A stretch of 64,000 bases of DNA, from positions 27,866-91,865 of the forward strand of contig JAEOTZ010000003.1 in the NCBI GenBank assembly GCA_016839585.1. Direction: 5' to 3'. Below are positions 3,135 to 62,165 of this stretch, one piece after another (position 1 is the stretch's first letter; each line of letters opens with the position of its first letter). Source of the DNA: Promethearchaeota archaeon (GTDB lineage Archaea > Asgardarchaeota > Lokiarchaeia > Sigyniarchaeales > SOKP01). The position numbers and the translations under genes were made by a program. The notes under the pieces are model-generated. The model worked only from the letters and a program-made list of their open reading frames with translations, was not told the origin of the DNA and made no database searches.

Positions 3135-3779
3135 TTAGATTACGTAATCGTCGTCATCATATATCTCTAAAGGTTGTTTTCTCAGTTTTCTTTCCTCTTT
3201 GACTTTTTTTAGTAATGAATTGTATCTCTCTAAATTATTATTTATTCGTTCAAGTCGTTTTTCATGTTTTTCCTGACTGATTTTTAAACGATTTATGATA
3301 CTTTTTATTCTTTCGATGTTCATTTTTGAGATATCATCTATATCGATTTTCTCATCCATAGGAGAATCATGAAAGGGAAAACAGCAAAACGCATTACTAA
3401 CATTTTCTTCAAACCGGGGTATAGCCTTAATAATTGTCTGTAAGAAATCTCCTAAAGAATTAATACTGAGTTTAAAGTTATTTTTTAAAGCAATCCTTAA
3501 TTCGTTGACCCCATTCTCTGTAATATAGTAAATCTTTTTAAGACGATTAGTTTCAGTGATTTCTTCAATCTTAACAAATTCATGTTTTGCAAGTTTATTC
3601 AATAGAGGATAAATGGTTCCAGCAGAGCCTCTCCAGAGCCCTCTGAAATTTCTATTAATTCTCTGAATAATATCATATCCAGTAATACCAGGGCTACTTT
3701 TAATTATTGACAGTACTAATATATCTAAACCTGACAATGTATCAGTATGATATCCACTAAAACGTTTTCCAAAAAAAAT
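3135..3779 (-). CDS. PadR-family transcriptional regulator (start probably ATT 3779; ORF track uses TTG 3737)
   Basis: TGYDIIQRI...SAGTIYPLLNKL...KKIYYITENG winged-helix signature and a C-terminal coiled coil. GGTGA lies 7 nt before an in-frame ATT. Confidence 0.85.
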   Translation of the reverse strand: MFFGKRFSGYHTDTLSGLDILVLSIIKSSPGITGYDIIQRINRNFRGLWRGSAGTIYPLLNKLAKHEFVKIEEITETNRLKKIYYITENGVNELRIALKNNFKLSINSLGDFLQTIIKAIPRFEENVSNAFCCFPFHDSPMDEKIDIDDISKMNIERIKSIINRLKISQEKHEKRLERINNNLERYNSLLKKVKEERKLRKQPLEIYDDDDYVI

Positions 3780-3814
3780 TCTAACTTCACCAATTTTTTT
3801 AGTTTTTTTTTGAT

Positions 3815-3884
3815 ATATATCTTAAATCGAATACCAATAGAATATAAAAAGAACACCTATTTAAATATATCGGAAATCGAATAC
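3815..3884. promoter_or_regulatory. Two 20-bp near-identical boxes upstream of padR (candidate operators) flanking a TATA-like element
   Basis: ATATATCTTAAATCGAATAC (3815-3834) and ATATATCGGAAATCGAATAC (3865-3884). TTTTTATA lies between them on the minus strand. Confidence 0.55.
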
Positions 3885-4035
3885 TAAAAAGTAATCTAAA
3901 ATAAATATAACTTGGGAATGTTCCTACCTATAATGATGGAGAAGAGATTAAAAATAATTTGGATTTTATTAAAATAAATTTAAAAAGAATGATTATATGA
4001 ATTAAATAATTTTAAAAATCAAAGGTTTAAATAAA

Positions 4036-4767
4036 ATGGCAGTAGAATTAACAGAATTAGAAATTTTTCAAGGAGGTTTGACTTTAGCTTCAGTAATTAT
4101 CTCTACAATTTTAGGCCTAATTATAGCACTTAAATATAAAAAGTATAAAAAAGTTGAATTATTATTAGTTGGAATTACTTGGATATTATTAGCAAGTCCT
4201 TACTGGTCTGATGCTACACAATTTATAATTATTATGATTTTTGGAAAAGAATTGAATTCACCTTTATATTTCTTTTTAGCTAATGCTTTTATTGCTCCAA
4301 TACATATAACTTGGACTTTAGCGTTCACAAATTTTCTCTATAAAAGGCAGCAAAAAAAACTTATGACCTTTTTTGGATGTGAAGCAGCTTTATTTGAAAT
4401 TGCATTTTTAGCAGTCTTTTTTCTCGATCCCTATTTAATTGGTGATCAAAAAAGTGCTTTTGTGGTAGAATGGGCGATTTGGGTCCAGATTTATCTATTA
4501 TTTTCAATAGCTCTATTCTTAGTAACTGGATTCTTATTTGCGAGAGCAAGTCTTAAATCAGAAGGTCCTGAACTTAAATTAAAAGGTAAATTTTTGTTAA
4601 TTGCCTTCATAACTTTCACATTTGGCACAGTAATTGATGTCATTGGAGCAGAAAATCCTACAGAACTTACAATACTTTTCGCTAGAACATTTGTGATCAT
4701 TAGTTCTCTCTGTTTCTATATTGGATTTACACTGCCTAGATTCATAAAGGATCTATTTATAAGATAA
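4036..4767 (+). CDS. 7-TM integral membrane protein of unknown function
   Basis: Seven hydrophobic segments with basic cytoplasmic loops and no soluble output domain. Confidence 0.75.
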   Translation: MAVELTELEIFQGGLTLASVIISTILGLIIALKYKKYKKVELLLVGITWILLASPYWSDATQFIIIMIFGKELNSPLYFFLANAFIAPIHITWTLAFTNFLYKRQQKKLMTFFGCEAALFEIAFLAVFFLDPYLIGDQKSAFVVEWAIWVQIYLLFSIALFLVTGFLFARASLKSEGPELKLKGKFLLIAFITFTFGTVIDVIGAENPTELTILFARTFVIISSLCFYIGFTLPRFIKDLFIR

Positions 4768-4782
4768 ATGTTAGGTTTAAAA

Positions 4783-5982
4783 TTAAAGAGGTGCTTCTGC
4801 TTTTTCTAAAAGTAATTGGAGTATTGCGGGATAAAACTCTGTAAGAAGCTCAAGATCTAATACGAAACTGCTGCCACGATTGAACATCACTATTATTCCA
4901 TAAGTACCTTGTTCACTTTCCTCCATATACATACTGGAAAGGAACCCTGGTGTTGCTCCATCATGTCCTTGAATTCCATCGATAACGAACCACCCTAATC
5001 CATAACCAGCTGGCTCAGCTCCAGGGATTAATACATGTTTTTCATGCATTAATTCAACTTTTTCAGGAGTAAGTAATTGAAATCCCTTATATTCACCTTG
5101 GTTCATGTGAGCAATCAAATACTTTGCTAAATCTGGCACTGTACTTCTTAATGAACCTGCTCCATTTAGGCTTAAATTATAAAAGGGTATAGCAAAATTA
5201 ATCTCATTTATCCTTTCATAAGGAATTGCGTTCATTCCACCAAAATCTAGGTAATTGTATCCACTATTTGTCATATTTAATGGATCAAGGATGTTTTCTT
5301 GAACATATTCTACTATTGATTGATTTGTAACTTGCTCAACTAAGTAGCCAAGCAACTCAAAACCCGCATTAGAGTAAAAAAACTCTGTTCCTGGTTCTAA
5401 AGCCCAATTGGTTGGATGATAATACAATCCAGATGGATTTAGACTACCATTTAGAAACTCTTCTAAGGAGGGTTTAGGATCCCAATAAATGTAACTTGTA
5501 CCAAAAAATGTATTTATCCATTGAATCAATTCTTTATCAAAATAATAACTCATAGCGTAATAGAAATCCTTTGTTAAACCTGTTGTATGAGTTAAAAGCA
5601 TGTTAATCGTTATCGGAGTGCTTGGATAATCCGGATGCCTTACATCAAATGGTAGATAATCATTTATATCGCCATTCAAATTTATTAAATTACTTTCATT
5701 GAGTTGAAGTAAACTAGTTGCGGTGAATGTTTTAGTGATAGATCCAATCATATAAACAGTATCTAAATCAGATTGATCACCAAATCCATTAGCCCAAATA
5801 AGGCTTTCATTAATAGCAATCCCAGCGGCTAGTGATGGGATATCATATTTTACCATCAAATCTCGAATCTTTGACTCAAAAGACTTTTTAGAAGGAAGGA
5901 AAATTATAAAAGAAGCAATTCCCGCTCCAACAACAGTAATTACCAAAATTAAAGCAATTATATACTTTTTGTTAACTTTCAT
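4783..5982 (-). CDS. Serine hydrolase, beta-lactamase/AmpC-like family, N-terminally membrane-anchored
   Basis: SxxK (GSITKT), LLTHTTG, YSN and HDG motifs. Confidence 0.9.
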   Translation of the reverse strand: MKVNKKYIIALILVITVVGAGIASFIIFLPSKKSFESKIRDLMVKYDIPSLAAGIAINESLIWANGFGDQSDLDTVYMIGSITKTFTATSLLQLNESNLINLNGDINDYLPFDVRHPDYPSTPITINMLLTHTTGLTKDFYYAMSYYFDKELIQWINTFFGTSYIYWDPKPSLEEFLNGSLNPSGLYYHPTNWALEPGTEFFYSNAGFELLGYLVEQVTNQSIVEYVQENILDPLNMTNSGYNYLDFGGMNAIPYERINEINFAIPFYNLSLNGAGSLRSTVPDLAKYLIAHMNQGEYKGFQLLTPEKVELMHEKHVLIPGAEPAGYGLGWFVIDGIQGHDGATPGFLSSMYMEESEQGTYGIIVMFNRGSSFVLDLELLTEFYPAILQLLLEKAEAPL

Positions 5983-6271
5983 TATACTCTATTTTTCTAA
6001 ATTTTTTATTGAATTTGAATCCTTTTCAAGAAGTTCAATATATTAAAGATTCATTTAATAAATAAAATTTTTTTTATTGAATATCTGCTATAAGTTTTTT
6101 TTACAGCAATAAATATTCAATAATTTCAAGAATAATTTTTATATTATAATGAATTTAACCAATCTATTAATTTTAAAAAACCTGTACTTTAAGATTATAA
6201 GTAATTTAAAAGAGGACTATTCAAATTTTAGTACATAAGTTAAAGAAATAAAATCATATCTATAGATTATT

Positions 6272-7441: not shown

Positions 7442-7465
7442 GATTTTAAAATCAATGCGTTTTAG

Positions 7466-7915: not shown

Positions 7916-8014
7916 GATCTATGAAATGAAAAAATAAATCAAATATATATAAATATCTATCGTAATTCTCAGATTATAAATATTTTACTAATCATTAAAA
8001 TGAAGGAGTTTTGA

Positions 8015-8806: not shown

Positions 8807-8990
8807 AATTAATTTATTTAAAAAAATTCAGCCTAATCTAGTAGAAACTATTTTTTAAGTGAAATTTTTACACTTTTCTTCAAATTCGAAATCATAATTG
8901 ATTCCTTGTTATAATCAAAACATTTATATATTGTTTAATGCGTATGTCTCATAAATAATATAATTTAAAACAAAATGGGAAGTATTATCC

Positions 8991-10001
8991 ATGGCTTTAT
9001 CTGAAAAAGAATTTTATATAAGGGATCTAGTTATAGATGATGAATATGGTACAATTGATTCGAATGCAACAATTCAAGATGCCGCTAAAAAAATGAAGGA
9101 ATTGGGGGTACCAGACTTAGTAGTAATAGAAGGAGAAAAGCGAAAGGTAATTGGAGTTATAGCTGATTTTGATATCGTACAAAATATTGTAGCAGAAGGA
9201 TCAGACTCGAAAACTGAGAGAGTAGTGTCAACAATGTATACAATCACTCCAGTTTCATTAGATACTCCTGTCGAAAAAGCCTTTAAAAGAATGCGTGACT
9301 TGCATGTCAATGTTGTGCCAGTAGTTGAAAAAGAAAGGCTTATTGGCGTAGCTACTATTCAAGATTGTTGGAGTTATATTCCTGATAAAATTGTGGATGA
9401 AATAGGCTTAATTCCTGTAAGAAATACAAAAGTAGCCGAATTTTGGTTTGCTAGTGCATGTGCGATAATAGCATTTGTTTTAGGTATTTTATTGCCAACT
9501 CTTGGAGTTTTTAGTTATTTTACAGGCAATCAATCAGATCTTCAAAGTTTTTTAAACATGGGTCCTATTGGAGGAAAGGTTACGTTCCATGTTTTTGAAG
9601 CACGTGGTGTGAATTTTTTTGTACAGTTAACAGATTTAATTTCGACTAATGGTGAAATATGGTTAGTAGTTGTGATTATTGGTATTTTAATGCTAGTATT
9701 TGGAATAATTGGCTTAATATCAATAGTATATGCTAGTTTTTCTAATGTAAAAAATTATCAAACTGGACGTTTGATCCAATATCTAATTCCTGGTTTAATG
9801 CTTGTTTTCATGGTTCTTGAATGGATCTTTTATGCTATTGGGTTTGCAACCGCTGAACCCTCTGTCAAAATAAAAATTGATGGGGTTGGTTTAACACTTT
9901 CAATTATTTCAATGCTTTTAATTCTGGGAGCTATTTTTCGTGATTATATTTTCCGTGAAAAGGAATCGCCACAATCTAAAACAAGGGAGGTGAAGGAATA
10001 A
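8991..10001 (+). CDS. CBS-pair domain fused to a 4-TM membrane domain
   Basis: Two CBS repeats (TIQDAAKKM...VIGVIADFDI; PVEKAFKRM...LIGVATIQD) followed by four hydrophobic helices. Confidence 0.85.
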   Translation: MALSEKEFYIRDLVIDDEYGTIDSNATIQDAAKKMKELGVPDLVVIEGEKRKVIGVIADFDIVQNIVAEGSDSKTERVVSTMYTITPVSLDTPVEKAFKRMRDLHVNVVPVVEKERLIGVATIQDCWSYIPDKIVDEIGLIPVRNTKVAEFWFASACAIIAFVLGILLPTLGVFSYFTGNQSDLQSFLNMGPIGGKVTFHVFEARGVNFFVQLTDLISTNGEIWLVVVIIGILMLVFGIIGLISIVYASFSNVKNYQTGRLIQYLIPGLMLVFMVLEWIFYAIGFATAEPSVKIKIDGVGLTLSIISMLLILGAIFRDYIFREKESPQSKTREVKE

Positions 10002-10002
10002 G

Positions 10003-11493
10003 ATGCCTCGTGGTGGAGGATTTAGGGGTGGTGGATTTCGAGGTGGAGGATTTCGAGGTGGAGGATTTCGAGGTGGACCAGCAGGATTTCGAATGGGAAG
10101 TGTTCGAACAAGTGGAAGACCATTCGGGCGAACTGGTGCAACAAGAATAGATTCTCGATCTCCAAGAGGTCCTTATTCACATACAATGTATAGACCACGT
10201 CGACATTATTATCGACCTTGGTGGTGGTATCATCGACCTTGGTATTATAGGTGGTGGTACTCACCATGGTGGGCTGGTCGCTATTATCGACCTTGGTATT
10301 ATTCTCCTATGTATATTGGTGGAGGTATAATCTTTTTAATTGTGATGGCATTGATTTTATTGCCTGCTTTTGGTGTTGCTATTTTATTCCCTTTTAGTGA
10401 CGCTGATGTCGATGGATCTGTGAATTACCGTTCAACAGAAACCTTATATTTTAATGAATTTTGGTATGAATATGAAAATATTGAAGCAGGTAATGATATA
10501 ACTTATACTGTTGAATCATCAATTGATGATTGCATCAATTTCGCAATATGGGATCATTCATTTGAAAATTTTCCACTAAAAAACCTTCATGATACTGAAG
10601 TAGGATCAATTCCTCTCCCGAGTAATTACTATGAATATCGATGGATGTTCCTAAGACCAGACTCTATAATAAATTTTGATTTTAACGCAAGTGGTCAGAT
10701 TGATTTTTTTATTGCTAATGGCTATGATCTTTATTTATGGAATCAAGGAGGTTCACCGACTTTTGAACTCAGTATAGATGATACAAATGGGGATTCTGGT
10801 TTTTTAGTGATAGATACTGCTGCTGATTATTATGTGGTATGGTATAACCCTCCGGATGGTGATCCTTCCGTAGATGTTGATTTTACTGTGGATTTTACTA
10901 TTGCTAATGTAGTAGATTTCACAGCAGCAGATTATTATGTTAATAATACCGATTTTGTAACTGGTACATTCAATGTTAATCGTTCAGGCAACTGGTATTT
11001 CTTTATTTACTTTGATCCTATGAATTCAGAAGCAGAATCTACCACAATTAGGTTTGATGTGACTTATGATACTGGAATAACATCAATTGACAGATGGCTA
11101 GAAGTTAGCCCAATATTGATAATTGTCGCAGTTATAGTTGTCATATTAATAATAGCTGCTATTATTGCTAGAAAAGGTCAAAAAAAATTGAAAAGTAAAG
11201 CTCCTCCAAAACCTGCAGCGCCAACTGAACCTTCAACACCTACAGCACCTTCAACTCCAACAATTACTACTAAAAAAGCACCCCCCTCTATTCATAAGTG
11301 TGTTCGTTGTGGAGCAGCTCATTCACCAGACGCCCAATTCTGTCCAAATTGTGGGGGTAAAATACAAGGAAGGCAACTTGGCACTCCTTCAGTTACTACA
11401 CCGGCAATGTCAAAAACATGTTCCTATTGCGGAAGCAAACTTCTGGAGAAAGATAAATTCTGTAAGTGGTGCGGTACTAAAATTGAGCAATAA
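10003..11493 (+). CDS. 2-TM protein: RGG and RPWY low-complexity N-tail, extracellular beta-sandwich region, Pro/Thr linker, double zinc ribbon
   Basis: (RGGGF)x4, then YYRPWW/HRPWYY repeats, TM, an acidic beta-rich region, TM, and CxxC..CPNCG and CxxC..CKWCG. GGAGGTGA RBS lies inside the upstream gene. Confidence 0.85.
   Translation: MPRGGGFRGGGFRGGGFRGGGFRGGPAGFRMGSVRTSGRPFGRTGATRIDSRSPRGPYSHTMYRPRRHYYRPWWWYHRPWYYRWWYSPWWAGRYYRPWYYSPMYIGGGIIFLIVMALILLPAFGVAILFPFSDADVDGSVNYRSTETLYFNEFWYEYENIEAGNDITYTVESSIDDCINFAIWDHSFENFPLKNLHDTEVGSIPLPSNYYEYRWMFLRPDSIINFDFNASGQIDFFIANGYDLYLWNQGGSPTFELSIDDTNGDSGFLVIDTAADYYVVWYNPPDGDPSVDVDFTVDFTIANVVDFTAADYYVNNTDFVTGTFNVNRSGNWYFFIYFDPMNSEAESTTIRFDVTYDTGITSIDRWLEVSPILIIVAVIVVILIIAAIIARKGQKKLKSKAPPKPAAPTEPSTPTAPSTPTITTKKAPPSIHKCVRCGAAHSPDAQFCPNCGGKIQGRQLGTPSVTTPAMSKTCSYCGSKLLEKDKFCKWCGTKIEQ
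10009..10077 (+). repeat. 15-bp coding tandem repeat (RGGGF) x4.6
   Basis: CGAGGTGGAGGATTT-type units repeated in frame. Confidence 0.9.
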
Positions 11494-19838: not shown

Positions 19839-21113
19839 TTAGATAAGTTTCATTAATAATTCAGATATATCTAGTATTTTATATTTATCTTTTTCATTTT
19901 CTTCTATTCCATATCCTAAACCTAATTCGCAAAGAGGACATGCTGTTAAGAAAACGTTAGCACCTGTCTCTTTTAATTCTTTTACTCTGTTGTAAGCTTC
20001 TCTAATTGCAATCTCTTTATCCGCCCAATGAACTGTTCCGCTCCAACCACAACAATGAACGTACTCTTTGTTATAGATAGGCTCGACAATTTTAAGCCCT
20101 GAAATTTTATTTAAAATTTCCCTTATAGAAGTAGTATCATTAAGGTTCCTTGAGATTAAACAAGGATCATGAATCGTAATTTTTTTAAATTCCTCTGGAA
20201 TTTCCTTTTCAAATTTTAATTTGTCATTGCTAATTAAATGGTTAATATATTCAACTATATGAACGACTTTTACTTCAATATCAATACCTGCTTTATTATA
20301 TCTATCAGTTAATGTTAACACGCAGCCTGGGCAGTCTGAAACGACGATTTTAGCACCTGTTTCTTTAATTAATTCTTTATTTTTGCCTGCAAACTTTTTT
20401 CCAGTTTCAAAATCTCTTATATTAAAAGCCGGACCACCACAACATACTCTCTTTTTTAAATTAGTCGAGAATTTTATACCTGCTTTTTTTAGGATTTCAA
20501 TATTTGCTTTAACAACCTCTGGAAATTTCATCATTTCACAGCCAATATAATAATAAACTTCATCATTTCCATCTGTTTCAATATTATCTATCCCCTTTTC
20601 CTTATAAGTTTCATAAATATTATAATCCTCTATTGTATTTGTCTTATTTAACTTATCTATCTGCTGTTTACAATAATCTGGCATTAATCCTTTATCATTT
20701 AGGTCATCCCTGACAGTTTCTAATAGAGATACTACTGAAAAATCAAAAGGGCACCAGACTTTACAACTCTCTTCATTAGTACATTTGTACATGAGGTCTA
20801 TAAAATCCTTATTTTCTTCTTTGGTTGGATCTATTTTTCCAATACTAAGATAATAGCCAATTCTAGCTTTATAACCAGGACTCATTGTTTCGGATTGTGA
20901 TGCTTGAAGGATTCCGCAATCAAATCTACACATATTTGGGCATAGCATACATTTAATTAAATTGTCTATATCAGCTTTATATTCACCCTCTGGATAGAAA
21001 TTCTTTTTTTTAAGGCGAAAGTTTTTCAATAATGTAGATTTGGTAATCCTATCAGCTTTTTCAATAAGTGGAACCATCCATTTGTATTTCTTTAACGTTT
21101 CAAAGACACCCAT
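19839..21113 (-). CDS. (Fe-S)-binding protein with CCG domains (GlpC/HdrD-like)
   Basis: CMLCPNMCRFDC, CTNEESCKVWCP, two CCG motifs, DCPGC, HDPC and ACPLC. Confidence 0.88.
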   Translation of the reverse strand: MGVFETLKKYKWMVPLIEKADRITKSTLLKNFRLKKKNFYPEGEYKADIDNLIKCMLCPNMCRFDCGILQASQSETMSPGYKARIGYYLSIGKIDPTKEENKDFIDLMYKCTNEESCKVWCPFDFSVVSLLETVRDDLNDKGLMPDYCKQQIDKLNKTNTIEDYNIYETYKEKGIDNIETDGNDEVYYYIGCEMMKFPEVVKANIEILKKAGIKFSTNLKKRVCCGGPAFNIRDFETGKKFAGKNKELIKETGAKIVVSDCPGCVLTLTDRYNKAGIDIEVKVVHIVEYINHLISNDKLKFEKEIPEEFKKITIHDPCLISRNLNDTTSIREILNKISGLKIVEPIYNKEYVHCCGWSGTVHWADKEIAIREAYNRVKELKETGANVFLTACPLCELGLGYGIEENEKDKYKILDISELLMKLI

Positions 21114-30908: not shown

Positions 30909-31523
30909 ATGAGCGAAGAAAAAGAAGCACTAAGAAAGTTAATAATGTTGATCTCGGATTTACGAGCAAAAGATGAAGAAAGATACGCTAGTCATGTTGA
31001 TTTCATGAAATGAGTTGCGGCTTCCGTAATTCACGTGACTGAGACAATCAAAATGATTGGTGCCATCGAATCTCAAATGAATAAACATTGGAATACAGTC
31101 TTAGACTCCTTAAAGGAACTAAATGAAAGCATTAGTGCAAATTTGGATTCTTTACTTACAGGAATTAGTCCAAAGGGTTTAAGAGAAACATCAAAATCCT
31201 TAAAAGAAATTATGGATACTATGAATAAAAGTGTGCAATCAATGAATTTAGAAAAAGTATTAAGTGAATTGAAAGGATTAAAAGGTACCAATATAGCACC
31301 TCTAATACCCCAACAAATAAGTTTGAGTAAACAACCAGAACCAATAACTGCAGGTATAAGTATAACACCTCCAGTCGTAACGACAACTCCATCAATGCCA
31401 CCAGCACCAGCACCTGAAACTGAGGTTTATGGATATGTACCTGGTAAGAAAAAAGAAAAAAAGAAGAAAGAAGAGGAAGACGAACCTCATCTTATCAGAC
31501 CTTCTGATTTATTTAAGAAATAA
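30909..31523 (+). CDS. Hypothetical helical protein interrupted by one in-frame TGA (31011-31013); recoded gene, pseudogene or sequence error
   Basis: ATG 30909 opens MSEEKEALRKL...VDFMK*VAASVIHV, in frame with the 31035-31523 ORF. Confidence 0.7.
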
Positions 31524-31562: not shown

Positions 31563-32912
31563 TTACTTGAATATTTCCATGTAGGTTCTAAGTTGTGCTT
31601 TCACAACATCAACATTTTCACCAATTTTTCTAAAATTAATAACAATTGCGGGGACCTCAAGTTCAGATTTAATTTTACTTTTTAGGATTTCATAGGAATT
31701 TGAAAGTGAAGGACATCCAAATAATTGGTTAATTATTATCCCATCAATTTCCAAATTTTTAACAAAATTTAAATAAGAATTAGTTAAAGCATCAGAATCA
31801 CACCCTATGCCCTTTTTTGAGGCGTCTAGTAGAAAACGGGCATAATCTTCAACTGGATCTGAATTCTCTGATACAGAAATTTCATCAATTAATCCTAAAA
31901 TTTCCCAATCAGCATATAATGCTCGACCCCCTAACTCATAGATTATTTCATGAGTTTCTGGTTCCCAACCTCCAAACATGGGAGCTATTAAGATACGTGG
32001 CATGTCTGATACATCCATTCCGATTCCTTTTTTTATTCTTTCTCGCATTTCAGTAACTAATTGACTCATATTTTCTAAATATCTTTGCGCATTAGAATTA
32101 TAATCTTGGAATGAAATTGTTAACAATGCTAATATCTCAGCAAAAGTAGCGGGATTACAAGGATAAAAATCAGATGAACATATTTCATATAAAATTGTTT
32201 TATAAAACCTTTTAACTTGATTACCTATTCGAAATTGCTTTTTTAAACTATTATCAGTAATATAATTCCCTGTTATACCCTCTAATTCTGATATTGCTTT
32301 TTTGACATTATTTACCATAATTTCTAATGTTTTATCTTCATTTTCTGCTTCTCTTGGAGGAATATTAACCCAAATTTGATTAGGAACTATTGATTGTAAT
32401 GATTCTGAGAATTTATTCCACTTACCGCAACGCATGGCAAAATTTAAGTTCGCATCTAAAACACTTCCCCTTGATTTATGCATTCCATAGAGAGCATTTA
32501 CACCATAACATAAGTCAGAAGGTACTCCATTCTCTACTCCTAAATCATACATTTCATTATATTTATCATTAATTGAGTTAACAACATCATCTAATACTTT
32601 TTCAACTACCTTTAAAAAGTCTAATTGCCTTGCGATCCCTAAAATTTTTGTTGTAAGATCCCAACCAAATAAGCTTGTGGCAGAATTTAATGCCATCAAA
32701 TATAAATTAATTTTGAATTTCTCCATTCTTATGGGAAATACTGGTATTGCATTAGCAGCAAAAACTAAATCTGGAAAGCCTAATGCAACAGAAATTAGTT
32801 TCTTTTTCTCTTTTTGTTTTCTCTTCGTTAAATAATCTCTACCCGTTAAAAAATTATAAGACATCTTTAAAACTGAAGTAAAGCTTATAACATCGTCGGC
32901 ATAAATACTCGT
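31563..32912 (-). CDS. 2-hydroxyacyl-CoA dehydratase family subunit (HgdAB/FldBC/BcrBC-like), paralog 2; probable ACG start
   Basis: Colinear with 33065-34423 and retains RC, GIGCD and LFGC. Homology extends 16 codons upstream of ATG 32864 to ACG 32912. Confidence 0.8.
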   Translation of the reverse strand, partial: TSIYADDVISFTSVLKMSYNFLTGRDYLTKRKQKEKKKLISVALGFPDLVFAANAIPVFPIRMEKFKINLYLMALNSATSLFGWDLTTKILGIARQLDFLKVVEKVLDDVVNSINDKYNEMYDLGVENGVPSDLCYGVNALYGMHKSRGSVLDANLNFAMRCGKWNKFSESLQSIVPNQIWVNIPPREAENEDKTLEIMVNNVKKAISELEGITGNYITDNSLKKQFRIGNQVKRFYKTILYEICSSDFYPCNPATFAEILALLTISFQDYNSNAQRYLENMSQLVTEMRERIKKGIGMDVSDMPRILIAPMFGGWEPETHEIIYELGGRALYADWEILGLIDEISVSENSDPVEDYARFLLDASKKGIGCDSDALTNSYLNFVKNLEIDGIIINQLFGCPSLSNSYEILKSKIKSELEVPAIVINFRKIGENVDVVKAQLRTYMEIFK

Positions 32913-36528: not shown

Positions 36529-37206
36529 TTATCCGGCAATTTGACCTAGTAATATAGATACAATAAGTGTCACGACACCAGCAGTAACTAGATGTATTGC
36601 ATATCTAACTCCTCCTCCCCTGGATATTTTTCCTAGGAAAACTCCTAGATATACAAGCAAGCCTACTAATACAATATATGAGATTATAAAATGCATAGGT
36701 GTTAATACTGTACCGAAGAAAAATGGAACTAATGGAAGAGAAGATCCTAGAACTGGTGCACCTCCATCAACCAAAGAAGCTACAATTGTAGCAAAATTTT
36801 CTGCTCTTTCAAGTAAATTAGGCTTTTTCTTCTTTTTTTTATTTTTTATTTTTTTAATATTATTCTTTGAATGATCTATTGTTTCTTCATCATCAGTCTT
36901 AATTATTGCCATCTCTTTTTTCATATCTGCAATTTTCTTTTTACGTTCAGCTTCTTCAGAAAGAAAAGCACCCCATAAACCACTTATTCCAATAGCTAGC
37001 GCTGTGGCAAATCCTGTAATAATTACTGTATTAGGAACATTTCTTGTTGGTTCACCCAAGAACATAATAAAAAAACCACTAACAATACCTGCACAAGTTA
37101 GAGCTCCGTCAAAACAATTGTTAAAAAATTTTCGGCGTGCGATTTCTCCCAAGTCAGACATTTCTGAATACTTTCGCCAATTTTTGAATGTATTTTTAAA
37201 ATTCAT
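36529..37206 (-). CDS. VIT1/CCC1-family transporter
   Basis: EIARRKFFNNCFDGALT, ISGLWGAFLSEEAE and PLVPFFF motifs. Confidence 0.85.
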   Translation of the reverse strand: MNFKNTFKNWRKYSEMSDLGEIARRKFFNNCFDGALTCAGIVSGFFIMFLGEPTRNVPNTVIITGFATALAIGISGLWGAFLSEEAERKKKIADMKKEMAIIKTDDEETIDHSKNNIKKIKNKKKKKKPNLLERAENFATIVASLVDGGAPVLGSSLPLVPFFFGTVLTPMHFIISYIVLVGLLVYLGVFLGKISRGGGVRYAIHLVTAGVVTLIVSILLGQIAG

Positions 37207-37325
37207 TTAATTCAATCTTCTCCTTATAATAATTATTTAGTTAAAGTCGATAAATTCGAATATTATTAAAATCTATTTAATGTATCTAAAAGATTCAATA
37301 CTTTATTTTATTTATCTTAAATGAT

Positions 37326-38042
37326 TTAACCTAAGAAAATTATCACAACAATCATTGTAGCTATAAAGGCAAATAACATCTGTAGAATCTTTTTTATAAT
37401 CGATTCATTTGAAATTCTTCCCAAAAATATTCCTAATAAAACAATACAAAAAAATATAACTATAAATGAATAAATAAATGTCATGAAATTTGCATTATTT
37501 ACAAATATAAAGGGAATTAAAGGAATTAAACCTCCTAAAAGTGGTGCAAAACCATTTACTAAAGCAACAAATTTTCCTGCGAAATTCTGAGCTTTTTCAT
37601 GAAGTGTTTTTTTTATTCTTCTTTTTTTACCTTCACTTTTATTAACTTTTATTTCTACTTGACTTAACATTACTTTTTTTAATTCCTCTTCTTGCTTTTT
37701 TATATCAAGATCTTCTTCTATAGTCTCACTTTCGATTATACCCATTGCCATATTTAAATCAGCACGCTTTTTTCTTAGTTCAGCTCTCTCAGAAAGATAA
37801 GATCCAGATACTCCTGAAATAAACATTGATATTGAGGTTCCAATTCCTGGTAATGCAATGTATAAAGAAGGAACAGTAGGCTGGTGAGGATTTTTAAGCA
37901 CTACCACAAAGAATCCTAAGATGATTCCTAAAACTGTTAATGCCCCATCATAAAAATTATTAATAAAATATCTACGTGCAATTTCACTGAAATTTGTTAT
38001 TTGGTTATAAGTATTAATTCTTTTTCTAATTTCAGACAGTAT
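37326..38042 (-). CDS. VIT1/CCC1-family transporter, second copy; probable ATA (38042) or CTG (38039) start
   Basis: The frame upstream of GTG 37907 encodes EIARRYFINNFYDGALTVLG, matching TM1 of the paralog. Also SGVSGSYLSERAE and PLIPFIF. Confidence 0.82.
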   Translation of the reverse strand: MLSEIRKRINTYNQITNFSEIARRYFINNFYDGALTVLGIILGFFVVVLKNPHQPTVPSLYIALPGIGTSISMFISGVSGSYLSERAELRKKRADLNMAMGIIESETIEEDLDIKKQEEELKKVMLSQVEIKVNKSEGKKRRIKKTLHEKAQNFAGKFVALVNGFAPLLGGLIPLIPFIFVNNANFMTFIYSFIVIFFCIVLLGIFLGRISNESIIKKILQMLFAFIATMIVVIIFLG

Positions 38043-39361: not shown

Positions 39362-40438
39362 GTGTTTTTTACGAGTATTATTGTTCCTCATTATGCATAC
39401 ACGTATATCAAGATAACATTATTAAAACAATTAATAATGGATGAAAGCACCTTAAAAAAATTAAGGGAAACCAATAATATTAAAGATTTTGTGGATTATA
39501 TTAGACCTTATTACCCGGATATTAATATAACAAAAGAAACTATCTCAGAAATTGAAAAAGCTTTGTTTCATATTTATATCAAATTAATTGGGAGAATTTT
39601 ATACTATTCACCTGAACATATGAGAAAGTTTTTAAAAACTTTTCTTTTAAAGTATGAGATTAAAAATATTTTAGAAATTATTATTGGTTCGATAATTGGA
39701 AAGAGTAGAAGAGATAAAGAAAAAAATATCAATTTTTTAGTTGAAGATTATTTAGAAAAAACTGATTTTATAAATGATTTGCTTGAAATGACCTCCTTAG
39801 ATGAGATTCAATTTTTTTTAAAAAATACTAAATATTACACGGCAATACGAGAGGGAATACTCTATTTTAGAAATAACGATGAAATTTTTGTTTTAGAAAC
39901 TTTTTTAGATCGGTTATACTATGAAAATTTAATAAAAAGCGAAGTGTTTTACAAAAAACAAGAAAAAGCGATGATAACTCTCTTTATTGATTATAAAACT
40001 GAAATTTATAATCTAAATATGATTTATAGGGGCATTAGAAATAAAATAGATAAAAACTTATTATCTCAATTTTTAATAAAGAATTATTTATTTCTTAATG
40101 AAGAGAAAATTAAAATTTTATTAAATTCAAAAAACGCTAATGAATTTTTTGTAAAGCTTGAAGAATATTTAAGAAAAATTGATGAATTAAAAATACTTTT
40201 TATACCAATAGTATTAAAAGAAAGGCACTTAAAATGGTCTCTTGAAGGATTGTACCAAAATTATTATTTTAAGAAGTTCCAAATAAAGATTGACGATATT
40301 AGTTATTTGACTATATATAGGATATTAGAATTAATATTAAAAAAAGAAAAAGAAATAATTTTTGATATAATGCCTAATGTTATTAAATTATTACACGACA
40401 AATATGAGATGTTAGAGGAAAAGCATGGAAATATTTAA
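39362..40438 (+). CDS. atpC: A/V-type ATPase subunit C (d/AC39)
   Basis: Size, operon position, and KYEIKNI, ETFLDRLYY and EIYNL..IYR patterns. Confidence 0.8.
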   Translation: MFFTSIIVPHYAYTYIKITLLKQLIMDESTLKKLRETNNIKDFVDYIRPYYPDINITKETISEIEKALFHIYIKLIGRILYYSPEHMRKFLKTFLLKYEIKNILEIIIGSIIGKSRRDKEKNINFLVEDYLEKTDFINDLLEMTSLDEIQFFLKNTKYYTAIREGILYFRNNDEIFVLETFLDRLYYENLIKSEVFYKKQEKAMITLFIDYKTEIYNLNMIYRGIRNKIDKNLLSQFLIKNYLFLNEEKIKILLNSKNANEFFVKLEEYLRKIDELKILFIPIVLKERHLKWSLEGLYQNYYFKKFQIKIDDISYLTIYRILELILKKEKEIIFDIMPNVIKLLHDKYEMLEEKHGNI

Positions 40439-41064: not shown

Positions 41065-41787
41065 ATTTCAGAAGAAAAGGAACTAAAAGAACAATTTGGC
41101 AAATTAGGTTTATATTTAATTGATAAAGCTCAACAGGAAATTAAAGATATAAATCAGAAAATGCTTTTACAAAAGGCAGAGATTAAAAAAAGACATATTG
41201 AGAGAAATATTGAGAGTTCTAAAAGATTAAGGGATCAATTTATTGAAACCCATAATCAATTTTTAAATAATGCATTATCCCAAACACTTTTAAATATAAA
41301 AGAAAGTATTTTAAATCTAAAGAGAAGATTAATCAAAGAATTAAAAATTAGTTTGAAAAACTTAATAAAAGAAAAAATAGATAAAGAGTACTCTTATTAT
41401 ATTACTTCTTTAATTAATAGAATTAAAGAAGTTAGTCCTATTATCGATAAACCACCAAGAGTTACTATATTATTAAATAACACAGATTTTAATTATTTTA
41501 ATGAAAATTTTGCTAAAATAGAGGACATATTTAAGAATGAAGTAGGGATTACAAAAACTGCTACTGATTTTATTGGAGGGTTCAAGGTAATCACTCCAAA
41601 TGAAGATATTCTTTATGATTATTCAATTGATAATTTAATAAGTAAAAAATCTTCTCTAATTGAAATAGAATTTTCAAGAGTGTTCAGCGAATCTGAGGTT
41701 AAAACTTTAGAAAAAGATTTTGAGCAATTTATTCAAAAGAAAAAACTTGATATTGATGAATTTTTAAGAGAATATGACAGAATCTAA
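41065..41787 (+). CDS. atpE: A/V-type ATPase subunit E; probable ATT start at 41065
   Basis: Coiled coil followed by IGGFKV...YDYSIDNL. The frame is open for 32 codons upstream of ATG 41161 (SEEKELKEQFGKLGLYLIDKAQQEI). Confidence 0.82.
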   Translation: MSEEKELKEQFGKLGLYLIDKAQQEIKDINQKMLLQKAEIKKRHIERNIESSKRLRDQFIETHNQFLNNALSQTLLNIKESILNLKRRLIKELKISLKNLIKEKIDKEYSYYITSLINRIKEVSPIIDKPPRVTILLNNTDFNYFNENFAKIEDIFKNEVGITKTATDFIGGFKVITPNEDILYDYSIDNLISKKSSLIEIEFSRVFSESEVKTLEKDFEQFIQKKKLDIDEFLREYDRI

Positions 41788-45009: not shown

Positions 45010-45669
45010 GTGTTAAATATCAGCTTTAGAAAAATTAGAATTACAAAAACAAATCTTATAAATTTGCAAAAAAAATTAAATTTTGCATTAAAAGGTGAGA
45101 ATTTTTTAGAATATAAGAGAGAACAATTAATACAACAAATAAGGAAATTATGGCTTGATTATACACTAAGTAGAAATAATTTTTTAGCAATCTTTAGAAA
45201 ATCTATGATTAAATTAAATCAAACATATAAAGAAATGGGTAAACGAGATTTTATTTTAATTAGTGGTATTAGTAAAATCCAAATGAAACCAGTCATTAAT
45301 ATTAAATACGTTAAAGAATTAGGAATTTTCAATCCTAAAATAGATTATAGTTTGATGCATAAACAACAGTTACCTGCATATTCATTTGAATACACAAGCC
45401 ATTTTTTAGATGATTTAATTATTCTTTTAAAAGAGTTTTTCGAAAGGCTTTTTCTTTTAGCAGAAAAAGAAGATTATTTACTAAAAAATGCAATGAATTT
45501 TAAAAAAATAAACCGTCGATTAAATGGTTTAAAAAATATTATAATTCCTAAACTTGAATTTGATATCAAAGATATAAAAGGAAAATTAGAAGAAATAGAT
45601 AGAGAAAGTTTCGTTCGGTTAAAAAAAACTAAGGATTTGATTTACAAGAAAGGATATAGTGAGAGTTAA
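45010..45669 (+). CDS. atpD: A/V-type ATPase subunit D
   Basis: TKTNLI...LEYKRE and RRLNGLKNIIIP...LEEIDRESFVRLKK motifs. Confidence 0.93.
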   Translation: MLNISFRKIRITKTNLINLQKKLNFALKGENFLEYKREQLIQQIRKLWLDYTLSRNNFLAIFRKSMIKLNQTYKEMGKRDFILISGISKIQMKPVINIKYVKELGIFNPKIDYSLMHKQQLPAYSFEYTSHFLDDLIILLKEFFERLFLLAEKEDYLLKNAMNFKKINRRLNGLKNIIIPKLEFDIKDIKGKLEEIDRESFVRLKKTKDLIYKKGYSES

Positions 45670-53313: not shown

Positions 53314-53916
53314 ATACATATTAATACTCATTTTGGAATAGGAGTAATCTTAGCATCCATTCTTAATTATTATTTTAACTTTAATTTATTTGAATTCTCT
53401 ATGATAGTCTTTTTTGCATTTATTAGTGACTTTGATGTTTTTCTTTCCAAATATGCTAAAAATAAAAATCATCGAATGTTGATCACACATTCAATAATTC
53501 CTAGTTTAATTATTATAATTTTAGGGCATATAATGGATTGGCCAGCTTTATATCTAAGTGGTTACAGTTATTCAATCCATGTATTACTTGACACACTTGA
53601 TTGGGGCACAAATTTTTTTTATTTTCAAAAAAAACAGATAGGTCCCAAATTTTTAATTTCAAAAGAAGAATTTGAGAACATATCTGAATATTTGAGTAAA
53701 TATAAAAATCCTGCTTATTTTTTTGATGAAAGATATTATAACAATAAAATTTGTATGGTAATGGAGGTTCTAATTTTTATTCTAATGATTTTATCTATAA
53801 CATTATTAGCATTTCCATATATCTTACTCATATTATTCTATTTTCCATTTATACTATTCCATTTATATCGCCACATTAACTTAAAAAAAAGTGAATCACA
53901 AGAAATATTGAAATAA
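53314..53916 (+). CDS. Membrane-bound metal-dependent hydrolase (YdjM-like); probable ATA start
   Basis: The N-terminal NTHFGIG lies upstream of ATG 53401. Also SDFD, HRMLITHS and HVLLD. GGTGA is 6 nt before ATA 53314. Confidence 0.78.
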   Translation: MHINTHFGIGVILASILNYYFNFNLFEFSMIVFFAFISDFDVFLSKYAKNKNHRMLITHSIIPSLIIIILGHIMDWPALYLSGYSYSIHVLLDTLDWGTNFFYFQKKQIGPKFLISKEEFENISEYLSKYKNPAYFFDERYYNNKICMVMEVLIFILMILSITLLAFPYILLILFYFPFILFHLYRHINLKKSESQEILK

Positions 53917-53947: not shown

Positions 53948-54385
53948 TTGACAGAAGGATTGAAAACTAAAGTAGGATTGACTTTAGAAGAAGAAATGAT
54001 ATTTAAATGCGATCTTGGAGAAATGAAAGTTAAAGATTGCTATATCGATGACACTCATAAAGATGAGGTGGATATGCTAGGGCCAAATCCAAGCAGAATG
54101 TTGGGGATGGCGATCTTAGGATGTTTGAGTGCAAGTTTTATTTTTTGCTTAAAGAAAAGAAATTTAACTATAAATGATTTAAAAGCAGAAGCTGAAGTCA
54201 CGATTGCTCGAAATGAGAAAGGATTTTGGAGAGTAAGGAAAATTGATGTAAATATCTTTGCCAAAATTGATGATCCTGAAACACGTAAAAGAGCAGATCA
54301 ATGTAGAAAAATGTTCGAACAATATTGTATTGTTACTCAAGCTGTAAGAGAAGGAATTGATGTTGAGGTAAATCTTAATTATTAG
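53948..54385 (+). CDS. OsmC/Ohr-family protein
   Basis: GPNPSRML...GCLS and YCIVTQAV. TTG start 6 nt after GGTGA. Confidence 0.9.
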   Translation: MTEGLKTKVGLTLEEEMIFKCDLGEMKVKDCYIDDTHKDEVDMLGPNPSRMLGMAILGCLSASFIFCLKKRNLTINDLKAEAEVTIARNEKGFWRVRKIDVNIFAKIDDPETRKRADQCRKMFEQYCIVTQAVREGIDVEVNLNY

Positions 54386-56237: not shown

Positions 56238-56359
56238 GGTTATATCATCCTATAATTTTTTTAAAATATTATATTATTATATAATTATTTGTATGTTTTT
56301 TAAATTTTTAATTCATTTAGAAAAGATATACACAAGAATAGTCATAAAAATTTTTAAAC

Positions 56360-57751: not shown

Positions 57752-57914
57752 ATAATTTTTGAATCTCTTAATATGTGTTAAATAGAGAGTATGTATATGA
57801 TACTAAATCTACTATATATATTTTTTGTGTTTTCAAGAATATTAGAATGATGATTAGTATTTAAGAGATGCATAATTAAATAATTTATAATTATAATTTA
57901 AAAATTTAATAAAA

Positions 57915-59630
57915 ATGACTAAACCAATAGGTTCTTTTTCATTAGTGTTGCATAGCCATTTACCTTGGGTTTTAGGGCATGGTGTGTGGCCCCATGGTAC
58001 AGACTGGGTAAACGAAGCAGCCGCTGAAACATATATTCCTTTTTTGATGGAATTATACAAATTGATTGATGATGGATATCACCCAAAATTAACTGTTGGT
58101 CTTACACCGGTGCTTTGTGAGATGCTACGCCATCCATCTTTTATTGGTGGGTTTTTAGGTTATTTAGATGAAAAATTTAATGCCGCATTACATGATTATG
58201 AAGATTTTACAGAAAATAGGTATGAAGAAGGAAGAATAAAGTTAGCTAAATGGTGGCAAGAGTTTTATGAGCGTGTAAGGGAGAATTTTATTCATAGATA
58301 CAATAAGGATATTATAGGTGCGTTTAAAAATCTGCAAGATATGGGACTTTTAGATATAATTACCTGCGGAGCTACTCACGGATATGCACCTCTCCTCTCA
58401 AAGGATACTTCCCTTGATGCTCAATTTAAAACTGGTGTTGATAGTTATAAAAGGCATTTTGGAAGAGCCCCCACAGGTGCTTGGTTACCTGAGTGCGGTT
58501 ATCGTCCGGGTTATCGGTGGAAAAATCCTATAACCGAAGAAGAATATGAAAGACCTGGTGTAGAATATTTTCTTGCTAAAAATGGATTAAAGTATTTTTT
58601 TATAGATACTGCATTACTTTTAGGTGGAAAATCACAAGGAGTTTATGCTGCTCGATTCCCCTTACTTGCTGAACTATGGAAGCAATTCTCTTCTCAATAT
58701 GAAGAAATTCCTACCTCTTTTGAAAAATCTCAGTATGAACCATATTTAATATCTACAGATCCATCTACACCTGCTCCTGTGGGATTCTTTACAAGAGATG
58801 AGAAAACTGGAATTGTAGTTTGGAGCGGAGAACATGGGTATCCTGGATGTGCTGAATATTTAGATTTCCATAAGAAATCCTGGCCCTCGGGATTAAGATA
58901 CTGGAAAGTGACCAGCCCTAAAATGGATTTAGGAGAAAAATGGTTATATTGGCCTGAAGATGTTCCTGGAAAACTAGATGAAAACGCCGGTCATTATGTG
59001 AATCTAATTAAAGATATCTTAAGAGATTTTAAAAATAAATTTGGGAGAGATGGAATTGTAATTGCACCGTATGACGCAGAATTATTTGGACACTGGTGGT
59101 TTGAGGGAAACTGGTGGTTAGCTAGAGTTCTTAGATGGGTAGAAGATGATCCCGAAATAAATCTAACGAATACAAGATTATATCTTGAGGCAAATCCTCC
59201 GAATAAGGTAGTCTCGGTGATTGAGGGGTCATGGGGACAGGCATCCTCTCACTGGGTGTGGCTTAATGAGTGGACGACTTGGACGTGGGAGAGAATATAC
59301 GAATGCGAAGCTAAGAGCGAAGAAATTATTTCTAAATTTAAAAATTCAAATGATTCCCATCTAATCAAAATCTTAAAGCAAATGGCAAGGGAACTCCTAT
59401 TATTAGAAAGTAGTGATTGGCAATTTCTCATAACAACTTGGAGCGCAAGAGACTATGCAGAAAATAGGGTAGCATTACATTATGAAAATTTTAAAAGACT
59501 TTACAATATGGCAGAGACATATGGTAAAGGGGAAAATGTAGAAGAAGGTGAGTGGCACTTTCTTGGAACTCTTGAAGCTAATGATGGAATATTTGAAGCT
59601 TTAGATCTTGAACCTTTCGCTAAAAAATAG
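57915..59630 (+). CDS. GH57 1,4-alpha-glucan branching enzyme (DUF1957)
   Basis: VLHSHLPWV, ETYIP, WLPECGY, PYDAELFGHWWFEG and ELLLLESSDWQF motifs. Confidence 0.93.
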   Translation: MTKPIGSFSLVLHSHLPWVLGHGVWPHGTDWVNEAAAETYIPFLMELYKLIDDGYHPKLTVGLTPVLCEMLRHPSFIGGFLGYLDEKFNAALHDYEDFTENRYEEGRIKLAKWWQEFYERVRENFIHRYNKDIIGAFKNLQDMGLLDIITCGATHGYAPLLSKDTSLDAQFKTGVDSYKRHFGRAPTGAWLPECGYRPGYRWKNPITEEEYERPGVEYFLAKNGLKYFFIDTALLLGGKSQGVYAARFPLLAELWKQFSSQYEEIPTSFEKSQYEPYLISTDPSTPAPVGFFTRDEKTGIVVWSGEHGYPGCAEYLDFHKKSWPSGLRYWKVTSPKMDLGEKWLYWPEDVPGKLDENAGHYVNLIKDILRDFKNKFGRDGIVIAPYDAELFGHWWFEGNWWLARVLRWVEDDPEINLTNTRLYLEANPPNKVVSVIEGSWGQASSHWVWLNEWTTWTWERIYECEAKSEEIISKFKNSNDSHLIKILKQMARELLLLESSDWQFLITTWSARDYAENRVALHYENFKRLYNMAETYGKGENVEEGEWHFLGTLEANDGIFEALDLEPFAKK

Positions 59631-60779
59631 TTATACTTGTTGACCAAGTTCAAGAGTTTTTTCTCTAATTTGGTAATTATCACTAATTTTGCAATTAGGA
59701 GCAATTATTGCTCTTTCTAAAACCACATTATCTCCTATTTCGCAATTATTACAAATTATACTTTCAGTGATAATACAACCAGCACCAATTTTCACCTCAT
59801 CCCAGATAACACTTTTTTCAATTACAGTGTCTTCTCCAATAGTAACATTATTGCCTATTGATGTAAGTTCTTTAATTTTGACGCGATTTGCTAACTGAAC
59901 AAATTCTCCGAAACAAGTTGGCTTTTCAATTGTAATATTTTGACCAGAATTTATAATTCCGATAACATAAATTCCATCATATTCTTTCCCATTGGGTGTG
60001 ATTGGCCAGGCATAATGCCGCAATAAGTCCCAATTTGCCCACATATAGGTTTGATTATTACCACAATCAAGCCAATAATAATTTTTTACAAACCCATACA
60101 AATCATACTGGTTTTCGAGGAGATATGGAAATACTTCACTCCCAAAATCCATTAAACCAGTTTCATGGAGGATATCTCCAATTTTTTTATTAAAACAATA
60201 AATCCCTGTGTTAATTATGTTTGTATGTAAAAACAAATCAGTTCTTTGAGCCATACTACTCAAATATAATTCCATTGGAGCTGGTTTTTCCAAAAATAGA
60301 TAAATTTTTCTATTTTTATCTAATAAAACAACGCCATATTGAGAAATATGACTTTCAACTGTTTTCATTGAAATTGTTGCCAATCCTTCTTTTTCAGAGT
60401 GGAAATCCATGAAATCTTTCATTGGAAGATTTGTAACTATATCTGCCATCGATACAACAACCTTTTCTGAGTCTATATGCTCATTTAAAAGTCTATAAGC
60501 ATCAGCAGTACCCTTACTGTCTTGTATTTCAAATTCTAATTCTACATCTCCCAATTTATCTGTAGTCCATGTTTTTTTAATATAATCTTTTAAATCTTCG
60601 CCCATATAAGCCAACGCAAGCGTAATGTGTTTTATATCTGCAAATATTAAATGAGCGATTGCATAATCTACCATAGGAACATTGGTAACTTTTACAAGTG
60701 GTTTTGGAATCAAGGCAGTTAAGGGCATTAATCGTTTACCTTTTCCACCTGCTAAAACTATCGCAGACCATTCTCTCAA
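59631..60779 (-). CDS. NDP-sugar pyrophosphorylase (sugar-1-phosphate nucleotidyltransferase with left-handed beta-helix)
   Basis: LAGGKGKRL.PLT..IPKPL, FLEKP, INTGIY, YWLDCG and hexapeptide repeats. Confidence 0.9.
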   Translation of the reverse strand: MREWSAIVLAGGKGKRLMPLTALIPKPLVKVTNVPMVDYAIAHLIFADIKHITLALAYMGEDLKDYIKKTWTTDKLGDVELEFEIQDSKGTADAYRLLNEHIDSEKVVVSMADIVTNLPMKDFMDFHSEKEGLATISMKTVESHISQYGVVLLDKNRKIYLFLEKPAPMELYLSSMAQRTDLFLHTNIINTGIYCFNKKIGDILHETGLMDFGSEVFPYLLENQYDLYGFVKNYYWLDCGNNQTYMWANWDLLRHYAWPITPNGKEYDGIYVIGIINSGQNITIEKPTCFGEFVQLANRVKIKELTSIGNNVTIGEDTVIEKSVIWDEVKIGAGCIITESIICNNCEIGDNVVLERAIIAPNCKISDNYQIREKTLELGQQV

Positions 60780-60890
60780 TATGATTTCCTCAAAAAAATC
60801 CTCATAAATTATTAAACAATTAATAGATATAAATCTAAGTTTAATTGAAATTTAAAAGTTATTAAATCAATAAATAATAACAGAATTGAG

Positions 60891-62165
60891 TTAATTAAGA
60901 TACTTGACTAATGATTCTCTAATTTCAGCTGCAGCAATATGGGGCAACTTTCTCGCAACTCGCATATCATCTGCCATCTCTGCTCCGCCAATTACTTCAT
61001 GTGGAATAATATCACCAAATAAATGAAAATCATCATCATATCCAAAAGGACAGCAATTAAATAAAAGGTTTCTATTCTTATCTATTTCTATATCATCAAG
61101 TGCCTGAAAGATAATTCTTATAGATTTCGCTAAATCATTTAATTGATTAATTTTCAATTGAGAAAACCTTCTTAAGTGCTCATTTGGATGAAAACGAATG
61201 TGGTAATTTCTCACTGGACTTCCTGTTGTATAAAAAGTCCAAAATTCGGTATTTAAAATAATACGATCTGTATTTCCATGTGTAGTTTCACATAGATGAC
61301 AATTATCACCCATCTCTTTAAACGCCCTTAAATATCCTTCCAATCGACTTCCATGACCATCACCACTCAAATCAATATATACCTGACTATGTATTCGGGG
61401 TTGTGACCCTCCTACTTTCATTCCTATATTAAAAAAAGGAGATATTGGAATATCGTAATAATCACGTTCTATAGCTTCTTGTACACAATAAAGGATTGCT
61501 GCTTTCATAGATAAAAAAATTCCAGCAATAATATCTTCAGGGATTAAATTAAAACATAAAGAAGGATAAAATTTTCTCGAAATGGTTATCAAATTTATCC
61601 CCCTCGCAAGTTTTAGATGAGGAGGTAATTTTTCAACAATATAATCCTCTATTTCAGGATCTATAATCCGAGCCATTGATGGATATCGATTTATTAAAGT
61701 AACTGCTTTACAAGATTCAGGAAGTCTTTCAATTTGATGAGGAATATCTGAAAAAGGATTGTCAAGCTTTTTTTCATCTTGATTTATAATGATAGTGAAA
61801 CCATCACCGAGTTGATAACCCCAATCATCAAAAATAGGTTTTCCTTCTGTGACTGCCATAAAAACATCCTTTACTCTCGCAAAAATCTTTTTTGGGCAAT
61901 GTTCAAGTTCACTTTTCTTTTCTACTGTATCATAAGCCTTTGGTCTTTTCCCTCTAATAGGACTTAAATAGGAATAATGCCCATAATACCTTTCACGCTT
62001 TTTTCCAAGACCAAAATCCTTAGATTTAATTTTTACTGTCGATAAAGGATCCCATCTCTTAATAGGTATATCATATGTAGTTTTGTCCTTAAAATTTTTT
62101 TTAGTAATTATGCCCCATTCCATGAATTTAGGCTCATATACTTCTTGCTTTTCATTTTCTGAAAT
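60891..62165 (-). CDS. Divergent GalT/HIT-superfamily nucleotidyltransferase; probable ATT start at 62165 (track ATG 62123)
   Basis: RGKRP, INRYP, GGSQPRIHSQ (cf. GASxxHPHxQ), CHLC, and a C-terminal GGAE...LP..AA. Confidence 0.75.
   Translation of the reverse strand: MSENEKQEVYEPKFMEWGIITKKNFKDKTTYDIPIKRWDPLSTVKIKSKDFGLGKKRERYYGHYSYLSPIRGKRPKAYDTVEKKSELEHCPKKIFARVKDVFMAVTEGKPIFDDWGYQLGDGFTIIINQDEKKLDNPFSDIPHQIERLPESCKAVTLINRYPSMARIIDPEIEDYIVEKLPPHLKLARGINLITISRKFYPSLCFNLIPEDIIAGIFLSMKAAILYCVQEAIERDYYDIPISPFFNIGMKVGGSQPRIHSQVYIDLSGDGHGSRLEGYLRAFKEMGDNCHLCETTHGNTDRIILNTEFWTFYTTGSPVRNYHIRFHPNEHLRRFSQLKINQLNDLAKSIRIIFQALDDIEIDKNRNLLFNCCPFGYDDDFHLFGDIIPHEVIGGAEMADDMRVARKLPHIAAAEIRESLVKYLN

Follow-up and report, generated by a model that had tools for sequence, protein, structure and literature searches.

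We analysed a 64,000-nt stretch of DNA from a Promethearchaeota archaeon of the class Lokiarchaeia (contig JAEOTZ010000003.1, positions 27,866 to 91,865; G000:C2:27866-91865 in our genome set), hereafter the window, whose genome is 3.45 Mb long, 29% GC and 99% complete. Comparison of its genes with their orthologs, together with a genome-wide tally, suggests that very probably about 3% of the genes in the source organism's family of Lokiarchaeia (labelled f1) start at ATT, ATA, ATC or ACG, and that these near-cognate codons are positioned by an upstream Shine-Dalgarno (SD) motif. We put the probability of this explanation as a whole at roughly 0.85, and, judging from the orthologs, initiation very probably takes place at such codons. 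At the sites in question, a codon one base off AUG stands where the start codon of the homologs aligns, without a canonical alternative. In what follows, ATH stands for ATT, ATA or ATC.

Eight of the 54 genes in the window have a near-cognate start, a share that the atp operon raises above the genome level. The first-pass annotation of this DNA had named these eight sites and two controls, and their codons, strands, motifs and spacers were all present as described. On the minus strand they are a PadR-family gene (3135..3779; PF03551) starting at ATT 3779, 7 nt after GGTGA (GGTGA+7; SD at 3787-3791), the gene for the D component of a 2-hydroxyacyl-CoA dehydratase (31563..32912; PF06050) with ACG 32912 (GATGA+7), a VIT1-family gene (37326..38042; PF01988) with the candidate starts ATA 38042 (GGTTA+7), CTG 38039 and ATT 38030, and a gene for a conserved protein of unassigned family (60891..62165) with ATT 62165 (GGTTA+5). 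On the plus strand they are atpC (39371..40438; ACG 39371, GGTG+6), atpE (41065..41787; ATT 41065, GATGA+6, with an in-frame stop two codons upstream), atpD (45019..45669; ATC 45019, GGTG+6) and a gene for a membrane protein of unassigned family (53314..53916; ATA 53314, GGTGA+6). Both controls, a gene with a TTG start (53948..54385, plus strand) and one with an ATG start (19839..21113, minus strand), are preceded by GGTGA+6. The nearest ATG, GTG or TTG downstream of the window sites lies 14-45 codons on, with a weak SD or none; in padR the first ATG comes only 140 codons past ATT 3779, and the entire PadR domain is upstream of it. Profile matches support the labels given to the PadR, HGD-D (dehydratase), VIT1 and AtpC/D/E proteins, but the labels 'YdjM-like' (53314 gene) and 'GalT-like' (62165 gene) have no such backing, since neither protein has a Pfam or NCBIfam match. 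Nor does serine as the second residue, which the first-pass annotation had noted at three of six sites, mark near-cognate starts, its frequency being 0.19 after ATG and 0.20 after ATH.

In four of these genes the start column is seldom ATG. ACG starts 47 of 56 f1 orthologs of atpC (ATG 7, TTG 1, unclear 1), and the ACG extends throughout the atpC tree, in which ATG turns up only at scattered tips. The start column of atpE reads ATT in 45 of 61 orthologs and ATA in eight (ATG 4, TTG 1, TTT 1, AGT 2), that of atpD is ATH in 39 of 53 f1 orthologs (ATT 18, ATA 17, ATC 4; ATG 6, GCG 4, ACG 1, unclear 3), and all 25 genus orthologs of the 62165 gene have ATT (22), ATC (2) or ATA (1) behind a conserved SD, their first ATG lying about 14 codons downstream and lacking one. 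Most atpE and atpD orthologs have an in-frame stop 1-3 codons upstream of the start. The upstream GTG codons of atpC (39362) and atpD (45010) lie within the SD; in orthologs the former is frequently out of frame and the latter is in most cases followed by an in-frame stop. Therefore, these GTG codons are components of the SD rather than starts, and the f1 orthologs bear out the first-pass annotation, which had read them as overlapping the motif. The SD of atpE is weak in the source genome, as is that of the VIT1-family gene.

In the same genomes, atpA, B, F, H, I and K start with ATG in 85-98% of cases. Four-fold degenerate sites of atpC, D and E are near saturation, with an identity of 0.36-0.40 compared with 0.33-0.35 for random sequence, and C is kept at 11-19% of them; for atpC alone the identity is 0.36 (random, 0.33) and four-fold C is kept at 18%, compared with ACG at 47 of the 56 starts. 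That the near-cognate starts were kept while synonymous sites became saturated leads us to infer that selection keeps ATG out of the atpC, D and E start columns. Other f1 genera have the same near-cognate pattern. In sister families atpC, D and E mostly start with ATG, and near-cognate cases of their own are found, namely ACG aligned to ATG in atpK (several genomes), ATT in atpC and ATC in atpA (one genome). ORF 47990, a candidate for atpK in the window, was rejected. The atp operons of four assemblies titled Hodarchaeota, Nanopelagicaceae, Hermodarchaeota and Odinarchaeota (L211, L221, L228 and L234, respectively) nest within Lokiarchaeia, and these assemblies are probably mislabelled or misbinned.

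At the remaining sites most orthologs start with ATG. The ATT of padR, the ACG of the dehydratase gene and the ATA of the 53314 gene coincide exactly with the ATG column of their orthologs. In padR, ATT is confined to the window gene and its nearest relative, and the 24 orthologs comprise 18 with ATG, five with TTG and one with ATT. Of the dehydratase orthologs, 26 start with ATG, those of the four nearest relatives among them, and one other genome has ACG; whether ATG or ACG, the codon always precedes the same Ser. A contig of 97x coverage also has ACG 32912, although it may derive from the source sample. The 53314 gene has ATG in 21 of 27 distinct orthologs and ATA or ATT in six; these six all have an SD of -6.2 to -10 kcal/mol, compared with a median of -1.5 in the ATG group, and the presence of the SD in every ATH ortholog and its absence from most ATG orthologs points to SD dependence of the near-cognate start. 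In the VIT1-family gene, conserved residues precede both the first GTG (+45) and the first ATG (+72), and therefore a non-canonical start is required. Which codon serves is less clear than had been claimed for ATA 38042: the SD, a weak one (-3.8 kcal/mol), sits before that ATA, but in the alignment the ATG of the orthologs falls on ATT 38030. The start region is the same in the nearest relative, and other relatives have ATG at the ATT 38030 column. The gene forms part of a tandem of two VIT1-like genes (36529-38042, minus strand), one with an ATG start and the other with the non-canonical one.

The pattern extends to the whole genome. The SD spacing of ATG starts is maximal at 5-7 nt, and the codons found at this spacing behind an SD match of at least 6 nt were ATG 49, TTG 26, GTG 5, ATH 47 and other 45. 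ATH accounts for 0.51 of the non-canonical codons at spacer 5-7; the share is 0.05-0.16 for neighbouring codons and 0.10 within genes. The enrichment is significant (Fisher p 1e-11 to 1e-17), and in a tally of 2,730 genes, each represented by its single best SD, the excess corresponds to 67-99 ATH starts (p 1e-13 to 1e-17 at the thresholds giving these values), i.e., 2.5-3.6% of genes or 14-27% of SD-led starts. ACG and CTG starts are rare. NCBI translation table 11 lists ATH and CTG as possible starts, and ACG is absent from it. A comparison of 211 ortholog pairs, drawn from a randomly picked 400 kb of a relative, gave 3-5 shared SD-led ATH starts and about four ATH/ATG switches, and likewise points to a few per cent of near-cognate starts. 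A few strong SDs in the source genome precede TTA, GTA or GCG, with no alternative start. In 200-kb samples of two sister-family genomes, one of them CP042905.2, which we take to be P. syntrophicum MK-D1, the number of sites was too small to show any excess; in CP042905.2, aIF1 has a TTG start, and atpC and atpK have ATG.

A further near-cognate start, outside the window, belongs to the gene of initiation factor aIF1 (contig C73 of the source genome, G000; L088:1459-1791, minus strand). The zinc knuckle of aIF1, which aligns with M. jannaschii aIF1 from residue 3, is not preceded by any ATG, GTG or TTG, and an ATT stands three codons after a stop and 9 nt after an SD. The start is ATT in all 21 readable genus members and ATH in seven further f1 members, two more being ambiguous; elsewhere in the phylum many families have ATA, ATC, CTG, GTG or TTG at this position, and other families have ATG. 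Of the factors used for comparison, aIF2-beta has ATG in 4/4 and aIF1A in 3/4. A GTG-led frame of five codons, present in every genus member read, has a TAA stop that overlaps the ATT of aIF1; the frame was rejected as an upstream gene, and may be a by-product of the SD or possibly an upstream open reading frame. In each of two relatives a second copy of SUI1 lies close to the dehydratase/atp region (G007:C18:24958-25173 and G024:C58:42845-43060), and one of the two copies contains an internal TAA.

The initiation machinery appears ordinary. In four relatives the 3' end of 16S rRNA has the usual anti-SD, complementary to the motif; the initiator tRNA (tRNAi) of two relatives is canonical, with A1-U72, three G-C pairs and a CAU anticodon; and aIF1, aIF1A and aIF2-beta are all present at full length. 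The source genome also has an intron-bearing tRNA gene with an apparent TAT (Ile) anticodon (G000:C86:57016-57171, minus strand), and most tRNAs of this genome have introns.

Taken together, we hypothesize that the anti-SD of the 30S subunit pairs with the GGAGGUGAU-type motif and thereby brings into the P site a codon that lies 5-9 nt further on, where ordinary Met-tRNAi delivered by aIF2 would be accepted with one mismatch, mostly at AUU, AUA or AUC and sometimes at ACG or CUG. The protein would then begin with Met, and such starts are likely to be less efficient than ATG. The sites may fall into two classes. In padR, the dehydratase gene, the 53314 gene and the VIT1-family gene, the near-cognate codon would be a former ATG that changed by drift, with a good SD in front of it, and in atpC, atpD, atpE, the 62165 gene and aIF1, a weak codon would be kept by selection, probably to limit or regulate output. 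aIF1 probably sets the tolerance, and its own AUU-started gene would close a feedback loop like that of bacterial infC. Such a loop is the natural reading of the ATT start together with the published autoregulation of IF3 and eIF1 and the rejection of AUU by aIF1, and we favour it by a modest degree. More speculative is a regulon in which the level of aIF1 sets the expression of about 100 genes with near-cognate starts, including the stalk subunits of the ATP synthase, and in which two-mismatch codons are tolerated; this is conceivable but tentative.

Several observations weigh against SD-led near-cognate initiation as formulated here. Codons with two mismatches occupy the start column behind an SD in atpD (GCG in L226, L229, L237 and L245) and atpE (AGT twice and TTT once, in L059, L232 and L267), and single-mismatch pairing does not account for them. 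The 16S and tRNAi genes were not found in the source assembly, where a relaxed ARAGORN search gave noise. The first-pass annotation had suggested inspecting aIF1 and aIF2 for changed fidelity residues, and no substitution accounting for low stringency was identified in aIF1 or aIF2-beta of the source or in the tRNAi of relatives; the ATT start of aIF1 itself is the better mechanistic lead. Further, the compared genomes are related by descent, so that ortholog counts are not independent, and because ATT and ATA are frequent at 29% GC, lone unconserved sites may be false.

Alternatively, low global stringency and neutral drift might suffice, near-cognate codons being equal to ATG and without a regulatory role. 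The patchy, recent switches in padR, the dehydratase gene and the 53314 gene are what drift would produce, and the ACG of the high-copy c/K subunit in several sister-family genomes and the ATC of atpA in one indicate that near-cognate starts can be productive. However, atpC holds ACG although its synonymous sites are saturated and strongly biased from C to T, the adjoining atpA, B, F, H, I and K remain 85-98% ATG, and aIF1 has ATT in 21/21 genomes, which makes drift alone improbable. Weak starts might instead set the subunit stoichiometry of the A/V-ATPase, as the first-pass annotation had proposed, and it is true that within f1 the low-copy subunits C, D and E have near-cognate starts and A, B and K have ATG. 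However, F and I, also single-copy, and H start with ATG, E differs from H although the two are present 1:1, the sister family has ACG in the multi-copy c/K subunit while its C, D and E are mostly ATG, and the idea covers three genes at most; we find it rather doubtful.

It is highly unlikely that the downstream ATG is the true start and the extensions are untranslated or the genes decaying. The 14 extra residues of the 62165 gene are only moderately conserved, as this would predict, but the parts skipped elsewhere include the zinc knuckle of aIF1 (and loop 1 in many genomes), 32 residues of AtpE and the whole PadR domain, and the downstream ATGs lack an SD. Assembly or sequencing errors are just as improbable: the dehydratase ACG is missing in the four nearest relatives, but the other codons recur in dozens of independent assemblies, and source-like contigs (82-97x) match base for base, so that error does not explain the set and is possible only at the dehydratase site. 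Hardly more probable is that an AUG is made or reached after transcription, by editing, bulge-helix-bulge (BHB) splicing, stop readthrough or frameshift. A probable BHB intron does occur in another window gene, and in many cases atpD shares its reading frame with atpB. However, editing would need C-U, U-G, A-G and C-G changes, and since most sites are ATT, ATA or ATC, organelle-type C-to-U editing, which converts ACG to AUG, could not repair them. Loose BHB folds with an upstream ATG were seen in 3/48, 18/78, 6/50, 3/25 and 2/23 orthologs, compared with 3/50 and 9/70 of ATG controls, and never consistently. Readthrough is contradicted by at least six ATH genomes in which atpD and atpB occupy different frames, by one in which two stops precede atpD, and by aIF1 having no overlapping upstream gene.

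The gene with the probable BHB intron (30909-31523, plus strand) belongs to no assigned family. Its 30-nt in-frame insert (31010-31039) contains a TGA and folds as a canonical bulge-helix-bulge, and once it is excised the gene reads like its roughly 21 orthologs that have no interruption. L003, L007 and L022 have inserts of different sequence at this position, and in L012 and L015 such inserts lie 12 nt further upstream. The insert is thus probably an mRNA intron rather than a case of stop recoding, and it was the sole convincing match in a genome-wide BHB scan near ORF starts. Elsewhere in the window (9994-11493, plus strand), a protein opens with repeated Arg-Gly-Gly-Gly-Phe units.

SD-positioned near-cognate initiation, which the orthologs and the genome-wide excess support, implies that standard gene finders shorten the affected proteins. 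The predicted mis-annotation is indeed seen, the same DNA having been called as an AtpC of 333 instead of 355 amino acids and an AtpE of 208 instead of 240; 51 of 120 database homologs of aIF1 lack the zinc knuckle, although some NCBI records do begin at ATT. This has consequences for the proteomes and structure models of Asgard archaea, and also for the view, put forward in reviews (PMC7531240, PMC12993045), that Lokiarchaea seldom have SD motifs. Reviews of Asgard translation do not mention near-cognate starts, and our literature search found no report of such starts in Asgard archaea. In prokaryotes, starts other than ATG, GTG and TTG have so far been known from a few genes in each genome; here they would make up about 3%, including essential genes and ACG, and in this lineage, the one most closely related to eukaryotes, selection appears to maintain them.

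The known systems most similar to this one are bacterial. AUU or AUA starts are found in infC and pcnB of E. coli and in infC, cvfC1, ccpN and citZ of S. aureus, where they lie behind extended SDs and yield about 10% of the AUG output (PMC13009471). As in these genes, the near-cognate codon here is conserved behind a strong SD, including in the gene of a fidelity factor. The differences lie in scale, with four sites per genome in S. aureus and about 70-100 here, some twenty times more, and in the use of ACG, in the factor, which is aIF1 (SUI1) rather than IF3, and in the archaeal host. In an annotation-based survey of 36 prokaryote groups, AUG had switched to AUU in 1 of 61,358 cases (PMC5622118). 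Archaeal SD-led initiation, as described so far, employs the same factors (aIF1, aIF1A and aIF2), a canonical tRNAi and the same SD register, with only AUG, GUG and UUG as regular starts (PMC6237735, PMC7531240); near-cognate sites were seen in Haloferax profiling and set aside (PMC7261190). Mitochondria also start at AUA, AUU and AUC (PMC11775629), but on leaderless mRNAs and with a modified tRNA-Met, whereas the sites here are SD-led. With respect to aIF1, the Sulfolobus factor discriminates against AUU (PMC4705826, PMC6237735), infC autoregulates via its weak start and eIF1 via a poor AUG context (PMC4705826), so that the ATT start of aIF1 offers a concrete and testable archaeal counterpart to both. 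If the regulon sketched above were real, feedback on start stringency would extend to the archaeal sister lineages of eukaryotes and be older than the context control of eIF1. aIF1 and eIF1 belong to the same SUI1 family, and in each case the gene of the fidelity factor has a weak start; however, the weakness in eukaryotes is a poor Kozak context met by scanning, and here it is a non-AUG codon positioned by the SD.

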